Of a stretch of 64,000 nucleotides of DNA, positions 2,959 through 37,732 are shown one piece after another (positions within the stretch are counted from its first letter, which is position 1; every line of letters begins with the position of its first letter). Made by a program: the position numbers and the translations under genes. Source of the DNA: Eledone cirrhosa (taxonomy: Eukaryota); the NCBI GenBank assembly GCA_964016885.1, contig OZ024742.1, positions 199,206,001 through 199,270,000 on the forward strand. Reading direction: 5' to 3'. The notes under the pieces were generated by a model. That model was not told the origin of the DNA. It worked only from the letters and a program-made list of their open reading frames with translations, and ran no database searches.

Positions 2959-3056
2959 TATATATATATATATCGTGCATATATATATCGTGCATATATA
3001 TATATATATATATATATATATATATATATATATATATATATATATATATATATAGT

Positions 3057-3409
3057 GGAGGCACATGGCTTAGTGGTTAGAGCATTGGCCTTGCAATCGA
3101 AAGGTTGTGAGTTCAATTCTCAGACCGGGTGATGTGTTGTTTCCTTGAGCAAGACACTTTATTTCACATTGCTCCAGTTTTACTCAGCTGTAGAAATGAG
3201 ATGATAGGGACTGGGGTCCATATCATTCCACTGCAAAGTGGTTGTGGAGGTGCCACAGCAAAAAAGCACCCAGCACTCACTGTAAATGAGGTTGGTGTTA
3301 GGAAGGGCATCCAGCTGTAGAAATCAAGCCAGCATCAGTTCCCGTCCCACCCTTGCAAGCAGGGAAAAAGCGGACGTAAAATGAAATGATGATGATGATG
3401 AATGATGAT
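3057..3409 (+). mobile_element. tRNA-derived SINE with RTE-derived 3' tail (family S1)
   Basis: A box TGGCTTAGTGG, B box GTTCAATTC, central CCTTGAGCAAGACACTT. The 3' half matches the RTE-A 3' UTR (AAAAAGCACCCAGCACTCACTGTAAATGAGGTTGGTGTTAGGAAGGGCATCCAGCTGTAGAAATCAAGCCAG). (GAT)n tail. Confidence 0.9.
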
Positions 3410-4094
3410 ATATCGTGCATATATATATTATATATCGTGCATATATATATATATATATATATATCGTGCATATATATATATATATATATATATATATATC
3501 GTGCATATATATATCGTTCATATATATATATAATATATATATATATATATATATATATATATATCGTGCATATATATATCGTGCATATATATATATATAT
3601 ATATATATATATCGTGCATATATATATATATATATATCGTGCATATATATATATATATATATATATAATATATATATATATCGTGCATATATATATATAT
3701 ATATATATATATATATATATCGTGCATATATATATATATATATATATATATATATATATATATATATATATATCGTGCATATATATATATATATATATAT
3801 ATATATATATATATATATATCGTGCATATATATATATATATATCTATATATATATCGTGCATATATATATATATATATATATATATATATATCGTGCATA
3901 TATATATATATATATATATATATATATATATATATCGTGCATATATATATATATATATATATCGTGCATATATATATATATATATATATATCATGCATAT
4001 ATATATATATATCATGCATAATATATATATATATATATATATATATATATATGCACGATATATATATATATATATATATATATATATATTATAT

Positions 4095-5999
4095 AGCATG
4101 CAAGCTTCGTTCCTCTCTAGTCTGCGTATATCCTCTGCACACAATGCCCAGGTCTCACTGCTATGCAGCATTGCTGTTCGTATGCAGGCATCGTACAACC
4201 TGCCTTTCATTTTTAGGAGAACCCTTTAGCAGCTAATAGTGGTATAAGCTCTCTGAACTTTTTCCAACAGTTCTGACTCTAGCTACAGTACTTTCAGAGC
4301 TCCCTCCCCCACTGCTGATTTTATCGCCCAGGTAATGGAAGCTGTCCACTATTTCTATAGAACCCTCTGCGCAATTGAAAGAGCTAGTATTTTGTGGGCA
4401 CTTGCTGCTACTTATTGCACCAGAACACCGGCCACATGTAAAATCTATGTTCTTAGTTAGCTTACCTGTGATCCCACTACATATTTTATGCACCCATACT
4501 TTGCATTTAGGACATAAAATGGAGTTTCTACCTACGCCTTTCCTACACACTGAGCACGACCATTCCCAGAAGGGACCGCCGCCTTGTTTCTTTCTACAAA
4601 CTAGTACTTTGGTCTTAGCCAGGTAATTTTAAGTCCTTTTGACTCTAGGCCGTGCTTCCATGTTTGGAATTTCTTCTCTAGCTCGGCCATTGATTCCGCT
4701 ATGAGTGTCAGGTCGTCTGCGTATAGGAGTTCCCATGGCAAGCCTGTCTTGAACTCCTCTGTTATAGCCTGAAGGGCAATAATAAATAGTAGGGGGCTGA
4801 GAACAGAGCCCTGATGGACGCCAACTTTTACGCTAAACTCTTCACTATATTCGTTGTTAATTCTAACCTTGCTGACTGTTTCTTTATACATGGCTTGTAT
4901 AGCCCTCACAAGCCATTCGTCAACGCCTAGTTTCTAAGAGCCCACCAGATAATGGAGCGGGGGACTCTGTCGAAGGCTTTCTCCAAGTCGACAAAAGCTA
5001 AGTAGAGGGGTTTACCTTTAGCTAGGTACTTCTCCTGTAGTTGTCGTACTATGAAAAGAGCGTCTGTGGTACTTTGCCTGACACAAACCCGAACTGCATT
5101 TCATCTAGGTCAATTCTCTCTCTGATTAGTTGCGCTATTACTTTTCCGTGACTTCATGACCTGGTCGATTAATTTAATGCCTCTATAGTTACTCCTATCT
5201 AGGGCGTCTCCTTTACCCTTATAACAGTTAACGATGATGCTGCTATGCATGGGAACAACCCCATTCTGTACGACTTGGTTAACTATGCGGGTGACCATGG
5301 TGTGTCCCACCGTGCCAGATGCCTTCAGCACTCTCAGCAACTATTTCCGAAGGCCCAGCCGCCTTACCCGTCTTCATATCCTTGATTGCCTTACTTATTA
5401 TACTCCCTCGACTAACACTGCTGGTCCCTCTATTGGGTCGATATGGGGAGACCGTCTTTCTCCCATTTATTCTCCTCATTTAGTAGCCTTTCATAGTGAC
5501 ACTTCCAAGCTACCTTCTTATCAGCGTCGGTGATGGCAAGTGTGCCATCGTCGTTTAGTACACACTTCTCCCCGACAAATATCACGGTTTTCCTTGACGC
5601 ATTGCCTAGCAATCCTGAACACCTCACGTTTTTGGTCATCGCGTTGTAGAACATGCTTGAACTTTCTTTCCTCAGCTTCCCTTCTTGCTAAGTACACTTG
5701 TCTCCTAGCTTCCCTCCTGGCCACTTGATAGTCTTCTCTACTTCCCCCATCCCGCCATACTTTCCAGCCTGCTTTTTGGCCTTAATTGACCCCTCCACCT
5801 TACTGTTCCACCACCATGTTACTCTCCTCCTGCCTACAGGCCTGCTCCAGCCACAGACTTCGTCTGTCGCCACAGCAGGTTTGCTTTCAGAAATTCCACT
5901 CTCCCTCTATATGTCCGACTCTAAATGTTCTTCCTTACTGTCGAAAGCATAAAGTAATATGCTTTGAAATTTATTCCTGGCTGTGGGGTCCTTTAGCTT
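4095..5999 (-). mobile_element. RTE LINE subfamily B, internal RT fragment with frameshifts, no 3' end
   Basis: QGSVLSPLLF, LLYADD and the Cys-rich domain are spread over several frames. 4095-4422 is near-identical to 29225-29554. Confidence 0.92.
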
Positions 6000-35483: not shown

Positions 35484-35507
35484 GTTGGTGGTGAAGAGAA
35501 AAGGCAC

Positions 35508-37292
35508 TTACCTCTCTGCGTCCCGGGTATCGGGCTGCACAATTTCCATTAGGGTGGGGGATGGGTTGTTGGGTGGGGTGGTGGTTTGTGGAAGTGTGGG
35601 GGCATCTGTGTGTTGTGTGGTTGGGGAGCTTGGAGTTGTGTGGGTGTTTGGGGAGGGGGTGGGATAGTTTTTTAGGAGGACGCGGTTAATGGGCCCGACG
35701 CAGGGGGGACCCACGTCCTCTTTAAAATTGTTTTTTAAAGTTTTATAGGTGTCCTGTGGGGCCTTAATCATTTTGAGGTGGGGGAAATCCCCTGCCTGGG
35801 TGAAGTTAGGCCCTTGTGTTTTTATTAGATTGTTGTTGTACACAATGTTTAACAGTTTTTTGTTTCTTGTATTTATGTATGTGTATGCATGTTTTTGTTT
35901 TTGTGTGGTGTTTTTTGTTTGCTGTTGTTGTGAGCTCTTTTGTGTTGGTGTCAGTGTTATGTTTTGGGGAGGGGTTTTTTTCATTTGTGTGTCTGAGGTG
36001 TGTTTTCTTTTTTTTCTTTTGATTGTGTGGAAGTGCTCCTCCTCGTCTGACGACGAACTAGGGTCATCTTCCGCGTTGGAGGGGAGGGGTATATTTTCGG
36101 GTTGTGTTTGCGGTACGGGTGTTTTGGAAATTGTTTTTGTTTTTTGAGTGGAGGGGATGGGTTGGACATTGTTTTGTTTTGGTTTGAGCTGTGGTGGTTG
36201 TTTTTGTAGTGGTAGTTGTGGTGATTGTGTTGGTTGTGCAGTTGTTGGTGGTGTAGGCAGGATTGGGGTTTTCTTATTAAGTTGGGGACAGACAGCCCTC
36301 AGGTGACCTCTGGTTCCGCAGAGGTAACACGAGGGCCGTCTACCCTCAACGGTAATGTTGATGAAGGTTAGATCATCCAGTATGACGCGTTCAGGGATCT
36401 GGGCAATCCTTTCGGGCCTCATTTGAACTACAAGTTTGAGGCTCGTTCCACTGAACGCGTCACCCGATGCCTTTCCCATGGACACCAGCATGTCATCCTC
36501 CAGGTCCAGAAAACCTGTCAAAACCCACCATATGTCCATAATCGGCAGGATGGTGTGGATTTTTATTTTTTGTGTTCTTCTACCCATGTATGTAGGGTAG
36601 AAGGTGTATGCGGTGGATGTGATTGGTTTGATGGACAGTTTCACTGCTGTGTCCCTGTCCTTCATGAGAATGGATAGACTCCCGTAGAGTCTATCCTTCT
36701 GAATGAAGGTGATGTCCTTCATGACGTCTTTTAAAACCAGCCCTATCTCGCTCTGTGATGGTTGAGCTGGTTTTTTACTTTTGTTCGAGATTGTCCTAAA
36801 CATGACCGTGTTTAGGAGTCTCTGGCTTTTTAGTTCCGGGGGGGAATGGATTGTGAATGAACCATTTTCCCCGTACACTATATATTTTTTCGCATCCGCC
36901 AGTAGTTCCTTCGCTTTTGTTATATCTACTGGCAGATAGTCGAGGGTTTTCCTTGTCGTCTCGGCGAAGGAGAAATTTTGTTTGTTCGTGTTGTTGTTGT
37001 CGTTGGTGGTGGTGTTGTTATCATTTTTGTTGTTGTCACCGTTATTGGTCTTGTTGTTGTTATTGTTATTGGTGTTGTTTTCGTCCGTCGCATTGTTGTT
37101 GTTGTTGCTGTTGCTGCTGGTTCTTTGGGTTGTTGCCATGGCAACGTCAAGTTGTCGGTTAACAGGTGGAGAGAATTCTTCCTCTGGCTGACCTTTCTTC
37201 TTGACCTCTGCTACTGTGACAGTGGCAGGGGGAAGCTGTAAGTTCATCTTCCCCTTTCCTCCTTCGAATTTTGGTGAAGAAGCTTCGGCCAT
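35508..37292 (-). CDS. Tx1 ORF1 (gag-like, zinc knuckle)
   Basis: 594 aa from ATG. CYLCGTRGHLRAVC (CX2CX4HX4C), Asn-rich N-terminus, Pro/Gln/Thr-rich C-terminus, basic KRKKRKH patch. Confidence 0.9.
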   Translation of the reverse strand: MAEASSPKFEGGKGKMNLQLPPATVTVAEVKKKGQPEEEFSPPVNRQLDVAMATTQRTSSNSNNNNNATDENNTNNNNNNKTNNGDNNKNDNNTTTNDNNNTNKQNFSFAETTRKTLDYLPVDITKAKELLADAKKYIVYGENGSFTIHSPPELKSQRLLNTVMFRTISNKSKKPAQPSQSEIGLVLKDVMKDITFIQKDRLYGSLSILMKDRDTAVKLSIKPITSTAYTFYPTYMGRRTQKIKIHTILPIMDIWWVLTGFLDLEDDMLVSMGKASGDAFSGTSLKLVVQMRPERIAQIPERVILDDLTFINITVEGRRPSCYLCGTRGHLRAVCPQLNKKTPILPTPPTTAQPTQSPQLPLQKQPPQLKPKQNNVQPIPSTQKTKTISKTPVPQTQPENIPLPSNAEDDPSSSSDEEEHFHTIKRKKRKHTSDTQMKKTPPQNITLTPTQKSSQQQQTKNTTQKQKHAYTYINTRNKKLLNIVYNNNLIKTQGPNFTQAGDFPHLKMIKAPQDTYKTLKNNFKEDVGPPCVGPINRVLLKNYPTPSPNTHTTPSSPTTQHTDAPTLPQTTTPPNNPSPTLMEIVQPDTRDAER

Positions 37293-37732
37293 TTAAAAAA
37301 ATATTGACTTTTCAACAAGAAAAAACTTTTTTTTTTGTTTAACTATTTCGCCTAAAGGCGTAGAATATTTTGAGAGACTGACCAGATCAAAGTTTGACCT
37401 GGCAGTCCCTCTACAAAATGGTACAAAAATTAAAGTTATCAGACAAGAATTTCTATAGAAATTTAAACAGAACTTACTCAGCAAGTTATACGCGTGTGTC
37501 CATCCCAGAGATAGAATATATATATATATATATATATATATATATATATATAATCATGCATATATATATATATATATATATATATATAATCATGCATATA
37601 TATATATATATATATATATATATATATATAATCATGCATATATATATATATATATATATATATATATATATATATATATATAATCATGCATAAAGAACAA
37701 AGGAACTATTATGACATTATAACAAGTTTACT

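Follow-up and report, generated by a model that had tools for sequence, protein, structure and literature searches.

The array and its host gene

The 64,000-nt stretch of the Eledone cirrhosa genome analysed here (assembly GCA_964016885.1, contig OZ024742.1, positions 199,206,001 to 199,270,000 of the forward strand), referred to below as the window, contains a long, interrupted (TA)n array filled with retroelements within the ubiquitin ligase gene UBE4B; all coordinates are window positions, negative values lying upstream of the window. The array sits in the first coding intron, which is 69.9 kb long, the remaining introns measuring ~0.3-13 kb. Coding exon 1 (MSELTPDE followed by GT) was located at -13712 by an exact match to the first eight residues of the Octopus bimaculoides protein, and coding exon 2 (IRRRRLARLGG...) at 56182-56365 on the forward strand, with 87% identity to the ubiquitin conjugation factor E4 B of the same species, whose N-terminus, MSELTPDE-IRRRRLARL, corresponds to the join of the two exons that flank the array. 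The remaining exons follow in order up to 113,693 and look intact; the TA content of the rest of the gene is ~1%, and the position is mid-chromosomal, at 199 of 379 Mb.

The first-pass annotation, made from the letters of the window, had the array start at 2959. Its actual start is at -3058 (G000:C3:199,202,943), 3.06 kb before the window edge, and the length up to the end at 37691 is 40,750 bp, of which the 19 insertions account for 29,420 bp and the satellite for 11,330 bp, so that the compound of punctuated (TA)n variable-number tandem repeat (VNTR) and insertions occupies 1-37691 (+) of the window. By self-comparison with scans of open reading frames (ORFs) and Pfam domains, 17 insertions were resolved within 2959-37691, in agreement with the earlier count, and two further ones, a fragment of a short interspersed element (SINE) and a Penelope-like element at -873 to 2956, lie upstream of 2959.

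The polarity that had been described is real, with TCATGCA occurring 153 times on the forward strand and 7 times on the reverse strand of the window, but the single uniform unit is not, since the spacers vary in local patches and some units are inverted (18180-18535 and 4052). Along the array the spacer types follow one another as TCATGCA, ATATCATG-type, TCGTGCA, TCATG, TCATGCA, CA and ATCATGCA-ATCTTGCA. Among 367 spacers, 224 of 348 neighbours are identical, versus 68 +/- 7 after shuffling; the patches carry on across insertions, and rare variants agree on both flanks of the inserts. Run-length patterns such as 18,11,18,11 recur, as is expected of slippage with local duplication. The satellite blocks include 5999-7736 (+), where TCATG grades into TCATGCA, 18142-19304 (+), which holds the longer inverted segment, and 22740-25313 (+), the largest pure TCATGCA block, with 66 spacers; the purest blocks (1.7-2.6 kb) have expanded without any insert inside. 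Of the 166 matches of a 26-nt unit pattern across the 3.0-Gb genome, 138 fall within the array, which is therefore a single-locus VNTR and no satellite family.

The inserted retroelements

All the inserts are of retroelement type, none is nested in another, and they are young, the nearest other copies being ~95-100% identical and private substitutions amounting to 0-1.2% in the copies measured; on these points the first description is borne out. Spacer-containing duplications of ~16-67 bp flank many of the inserts (16-26 bp at the SINE and RTE copies), and the orientation relative to UBE4B, assigned by eye, is sense for 8 and antisense for 11, with no clear strand bias.

The RTE-A, RTE-B and SINE S1 copies share their 3' sequence and all end in (GAT)n. 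The anatomy of RTE is present, namely an ORF with APE and reverse transcriptase (RT) domains, a microsatellite tail and a SINE with the 3' sequence of a long interspersed element (LINE), and the clade is presumably RTE, in keeping with the earlier label. SINE S1 is found at 3056-3409 (+), with an RTE-type 3' end and a (GAT)n tail, at 25314-25650 (+), and at 27681-28024 (-), with a spacer-containing target duplication. RTE-A is represented by a 5'-truncated copy at 7737-8547 (+), flanked by a 20-bp spacer-containing target duplication, and by a near-full copy at 11441-14646 (+) with APE, RT and PHD-like domains and a single frameshift near 12210; a tail-only (ATG)n insertion lies at 14907-14915 (-), directly at a spacer (TCATGCAT/CATCATCATC/GCAT). 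RTE-B comprises 3' fragments at 16365-17050 (+), whose final 356 bp recur unchanged in 40 or more other copies, and at 30196-30562 (-), a 5'-truncated copy at 28556-29554 (-) with the (TA)nCA satellite variant on either side, and an internal fragment at 4090-5998 (-) that has neither end and belongs to another subfamily than 16365-17050. The last is broken at GCATGC, a microhomology with a satellite spacer variant, and likely came to be without its 3' end by deletion or internal priming. The spacer variant switches at two junctions, those of 4090-5998 and of 30562.

Placed on the element, the fragments 4090-5998 (-) and 16365-17050 (+) meet to within 17 nt, which had suggested that they were the halves of one twin-primed insertion enclosing 10 kb of array. 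This was rejected because the 5' piece has the allele of the other subfamily at six diagnostic columns and because the truncation at the same spot recurs at other loci (L169, L032, L315). In a SINE S1 copy elsewhere (L342:7333-7925), the first 91 bp are present four times in tandem.

Five fragments of Penelope-like elements (PLE0-4), all truncated copies without RT, were identified from remnants of GIY-YIG, from hammerhead cores and from inverted 5' pieces. PLE0 (-873 to 2956, -; 3.8 kb) has a C-terminal GIY-YIG remnant at 2745-2954 and a long CA/TA-rich 3' region; 67 bp of the array are duplicated on its two sides, and it had escaped the first-pass annotation. PLE1 (8644-11110, +) carries a 5'-inverted piece, a GIY-YIG-like ORF at 8889-9551 with a CxC...CxxxxxC linker upstream, and a hammerhead core at 11012-11054; its Atlas matches (0.95-0.97) include a GIY-YIG cluster (18% of members). 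PLE2 (15015-16300, +) is a fragment with an inverted 5' piece, a canonical hammerhead core at 16218-16243 and no coding remnant. PLE3 (19305-22739, +) is largely a 3.35-kb fold-back palindrome (19394-22739) centred in the GIY-YIG coding region, with arms 99.1% identical over 1677 bp (7 mismatches, 2 gaps); its C-terminal GIY-YIG match in Pfam (E=0.0024) is below the cut-off. PLE4 (25687-27619, -), a relative of PLE1, has a hammerhead core at 25742-25783. PLE0, PLE3 and PLE4 match PLE1 in tblastn, and PLE1-4 share a hammerhead in the pseudo-long terminal repeat together with an inverted 5' piece. A genome search with the end of PLE3, in which common words were skipped, gave no matches; copies were found instead in the sampled stretches, and the fold-back structure recurs in one of the family (L346). 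Sense-strand hammerhead cores lie in the UBE4B intron at 11012, 16218 and 22642, and the PLE3 fold-back is predicted to give the pre-mRNA a long double-stranded segment that is a candidate substrate for ADAR.

The two direct-repeat elements that had been left unclassified can now be assigned: judging from their sequence, DR1 and DR2 are tandem, retrozyme-like non-autonomous Penelope derivatives. DR1 (17262-18141, -) consists of ~1.25 monomers of a ~656-bp tandem bearing a hammerhead-like core, and DR2 (30926-31646, -) of one 616-bp monomer plus 103 bp with an atypical hammerhead-like core. Both families occur at many loci as head-to-tail non-coding monomers, the 3' end being fixed in TA and the 5' truncation variable, and some DR1 copies have inverted 5' pieces, like the Penelope-like elements. 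Compared with a type I hammerhead, the DR1 core, CUGAUGA..GAAAC, has stems II and III, with a weak stem I; that of DR2 is a non-canonical CUGAUAGA variant whose stem III is conserved and kept in a divergent relative, though the minimum free energy fold does not recover it. The 150 Rfam hits listed, of 393, include no hammerhead family and are sub-threshold microRNA-like matches to the TA repeats and the palindrome. The DR2 family is very young, with runs of up to ~14 monomers elsewhere that are 99-100% identical; examples lie at C6:47,451,996-47,460,266 and C4:62,114,693-62,117,320.

The remaining insert, at 31783-37515 (-), is a LINE with two open ORFs, the first with a weak zinc knuckle (E=0.05) and the second with APE, RT and zf-RVT domains; by this anatomy it is presumably of the Tx1 clade. 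The usual site of this family is (TATC)n or (TACC)n (11/13 by script, 24/29 by eye), so the copy in the TA array is off-target. Young members with intact ORFs in (TATC)n/(GATA)n were seen at L112-L141, L304, L334 and L343. As the endonucleases of RTE and Tx1 are both of the APE type (Pfam Exo_endo_phos families), the array unites two unrelated endonuclease systems and not the three that had been proposed.

The array compared with ordinary TA repeats

The baseline was a sample of 80 evenly spaced 10-kb genome stretches, with TA defined as (TA)>=6, young as >=92%, and one pipeline used throughout. In this sample, (TA)>=6 makes up 3.65% of the bases and six punctuated blocks of at least 500 bp occur. 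Young element edges number 6.8 per kb of TA in the sample (243 per 35.5 kb) versus 3.6 in the array (41 per 11.5 kb; p=4e-5), and 5 of the 80 stretches reach at least 11 edges per 10 kb versus 9.9 in the array. The special niche of the first-pass annotation is not upheld by this lower density per TA base, an outcome which that annotation had itself named as refuting it, nor by the occurrence of the same families in TA elsewhere: among the closest other copies, TA adjoins the 3' end in 29/29 for DR1, 12/12 for DR2, 14/30 for RTE-B, 10/29 for RTE-A and 7/19 for PLE1, and lies on one side of 21/29 SINE copies. What characterises a nest targeted to a microsatellite is seen here, that is, families found in TA elsewhere (Tx1 excepted), the same spacer variant on both flanks, and target duplications.

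The lack of DNA transposons among the 19 inserts appears unremarkable, since such elements seem scarce at TA edges in general: by motif they account for 7 of 260 young TA edges, 168 of which that script left unclassified, and the chance of 0/19 is P=0.38 at a share of 5% and 0.14 at 10%.

A similar nest was met at G000:C2:2,659,900-2,683,100 (L048-L050, L384-L385), where a second polarised punctuated TA array of ~23 kb with the spacer TGTATGA holds more than 10 inserts. Having been found with the array spacer as query, it shows recurrence and not frequency, and for the same reason the likeness of its spacer was discounted as evidence. Tandem elements of 466 bp x11.5 and 310 bp x2.7 are included in it.

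A 31.6-kb pure VNTR with a 19-bp TG-rich unit (TGTTGGTGTGGAGAGTGTG, ~1657 copies) lies at -56356 to -24782 (G000:C3), 22 kb upstream of the array and 11 kb upstream of UBE4B exon 1, and over its 31.6 kb there are zero insertions and no interruption longer than 57 bp. Being a satellite is therefore insufficient, which argues for sequence targeting over retention in a safe haven, unless this VNTR is merely newer. That the insertions target the satellite by sequence is supported.

Position of the RTE tails relative to the spacer

Each of the ten RTE-type (ATG)n tails found in the array has a spacer at a distance of 0-6 nt, where 3.6 would be expected from the local run lengths (P=3e-5); the 12 PLE and Tx1 ends are all farther off, at 9-31 nt. 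Among the TA-adjacent tails in sampled ordinary TA, 5 of 17 are as near to a spacer (p=4e-4 versus the array). Of 6 positions, the main spacer agrees with the (ATG)n tail in 5, whichever strand is read (ATCATG / CATGAT), and pure TA in 2; by this resemblance the spacer likely aids priming. At three of the ten tail sites the spacer is CA or CACAC, a poor mimic. A general preference of RTE for the downstream edge of TA runs was also considered and set aside as weak and not general (SINE 5' versus 3', p=0.026; 15/22 versus 11.6 expected).

Probable origin of the array

Taken together, the data probably reflect an interrupted (TA)n minisatellite, confined to one locus in the UBE4B intron and grown by slippage and duplication, which has collected 19 young TA-preferring retroelements. 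Slippage and local duplication of units would have driven most of the growth, and the elements would have gathered because their families favour TA throughout the genome and the 11 kb of it in the array offer a large target. The Penelope GIY-YIG machinery may cut within TA runs and mobilise the tandem retrozyme-like elements; the literature reports a (TA)n bias for Naiad and hypothesises one for Neptune through a CX2-5CxxC linker (PMC8557442). The RTE machinery may prime beside the spacer by virtue of the 5-of-6 match to the (ATG)n RNA tail, such tail repeats having been proposed to steer cleavage or priming (PMC6007223). Each insertion would copy one or two array units, under 1 kb when summed, and the array would be tolerated because it is removed by splicing. 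The array is accordingly most likely a large but largely ordinary case of TA-favouring elements.

Several observations weigh against this. Per kb of DNA, young edges are 3.3-fold richer in the array than in the sample (0.99 versus 0.30); long TA blocks (>150 bp) in the sample rarely have young edges (7 of the 65 edges of such blocks); inserts are few or absent in some punctuated arrays of the sample, L314 among them; and the per-TA-base baseline is inflated by short runs of TA brought or made by the elements themselves, so that the array stands at the high end. RTE tails number 0.78 per kb of TA in the array versus 0.48 in the sample, no significant rise (p=0.25), spacer-adjacent priming is weak in punctuated contexts elsewhere (15/22 versus 11.6 expected), and no read spans the array, Logan contigs breaking at the repeats.

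The alternative that survives best, although it is quite improbable, is a niche with positive feedback, in which the tail-mimicking spacer draws RTE priming, insertions together with breakage and repair of TA duplicate the units, recruitment outpaces that of plain TA, and the intron is inflated. It would account for the spacer adjacency of all ten RTE tails, the spacer-containing duplications around many inserts, the tail-only insertion exactly at a spacer, the two truncated ends at spacer switches (4090-5998, 30562), which suggest breaks, and the 1.6-fold density of RTE tails per kb of TA. However, this last excess is not significant (p=0.25), the young edges in total are half of the baseline per kb of TA, the purest blocks expanded without inserts, and duplications made by insertion contribute less than 1 kb of 11.3 kb; the 'self-expanding' character once ascribed to the array is therefore true of this small part only. 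Somewhat less doubtful, yet still unlikely, is a reading in which TCATGCA would act as a decoy of the RTE tail on both strands, and feedback with unit-copying RTE and Penelope inserts would recently have added 41 kb to the intron, leaving the pre-mRNA with a near-perfect hairpin of 1.67 kb and with hammerheads on the sense strand as would-be ADAR or self-cleavage substrates.

It is very improbable that the blocks were misjoined or expanded by the assembly through TA runs. Besides the missing spanning reads, TA-run lengths are error-prone and the 3.35-kb palindrome can come from fold-back reads; but the spacer is nearly unique to the locus, its rare variants agree across insertions, UBE4B exons 1 and 2 flank the array in the correct order, and the PLE3 arms differ from each other, with the fold-back recurring at another locus. 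Logan contigs and RAD-seq (restriction site-associated DNA) reads on 16050-17062 gave no spanning record, which is uninformative, and X1-X3 may derive from the very sample that was assembled. Equally far-fetched is a functional domain of centromere-like, heterochromatic or piRNA-trap kind: the mid-chromosome position, the second large VNTR 22 kb away and the high content of young elements would suit it, but the array is intronic, within a housekeeping gene for a ubiquitin ligase whose exons look intact, measures only 41 kb with ~1% TA in the flanks, has a unit that is not amplified elsewhere and lacks a clear strand bias. The location in UBE4B makes all three roles unlikely, and the array, at 41 kb and one locus, differs from centromeric satellites, which are large, multi-locus or megabase-sized, and gene-free.

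Sequences flanking the array

The array is bounded on the right by an older element with a hammerhead-like core (37692-38219, -). The abrupt end at 37691 with older repeats beyond it was confirmed, 51.5% of the array being matched at >=95% by the comparison loci, a set enriched for array families, versus 3.7% of 37692-64000; a young SINE S1 copy at 47960-48300, however, also lies outside the array. The DNA transposons and Helitrons noted there earlier were traced as mariner-like and Helitron-like remnants, but with weak Pfam hits below the cut-off. A mariner-like element at 60531-62000 (Pfam match below the cut-off) begins directly at a (TA)21 run, and a helicase-like remnant at 47579-47959, whose Pfam match is likewise below the cut-off, is presumably Helitron-like. 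An element at 40428-41122 with GTTCTCAAC / GTTGAGAAC inverted ends, inside an old RTE copy, is what we take to be hAT-like. A second Ufd2P_core locus with long open frames (G000:C23:1,018,065-1,023,993) is possibly a UBE4A paralogue with few introns.

Significance and relation to known systems

The locus illustrates well how cephalopod introns are inflated by (TA)n together with TA-seeking retroelements, with the insert-free TG-rich VNTR as an internal control. If the tail-mimic effect held genome-wide, hundreds of identical sites would allow the role of RNA-DNA pairing in RTE priming to be tested in nature, and the very young 616-bp retrozyme-like DR2 family and the (TATC)n-targeting Tx1 are usable leads. 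Among the titles and abstract openings of a partial literature search, there was no cephalopod nest like this one, tail-mimic spacer or GATA/TATC-targeting Tx1; Repbase-type catalogues, outside that search, may list the families.

The squid genome is reported to contain more than 10% (AT)n (PMC9068888), and O. vulgaris to have active RTE, Tx1, SINE and Penelope families with 288 hotspots of transposable elements (PMC13282606). The same element classes are thus active in cephalopods and local accumulation is common, while the parts covered of both studies describe no nests in a punctuated TA array. RTE insertions are described with 3' junctions concentrated at targets similar to the tail repeat, as is the case here; the signature given is a microhomology of 1-2 nt in animals and an upstream T-stretch, whereas each unit of the array offers a 5-of-6 tail mimic (PMC6007223).

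The non-LTR (long terminal repeat) retrozymes, which are reported as non-autonomous derivatives of Penelope-like elements (bioRxiv 10.64898/2026.07.22.740005), resemble DR1 and DR2 in being non-coding, low in GC and head-to-tail, and in a 3' end that is constant while the 5' truncation varies (PMC7229834). The monomers of DR2 and DR1, 616 and ~656 bp, are longer than the ~200-400 bp of the retrozymes described in that source, and their putative ribozyme cores are atypical, especially that of DR2. Similar tandem and inverted structures are described for the Penelope-like Naiad and Neptune, whose target duplications are likewise difficult to read in (TA)n (PMC8557442). With the microsatellite-targeting Waldo, Mino, Kibi, Koshi and Dong, the array shares insertion into a simple repeat by sequence preference, and the (TATC)n/(GATA)n target of the Tx1 family is not among the targets given in the covered part of that source (PMC3812793). 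Compared with the systems of PMC3812793 and PMC8557442, what distinguishes the UBE4B array is the gathering of several families in one very long, interrupted intronic array.

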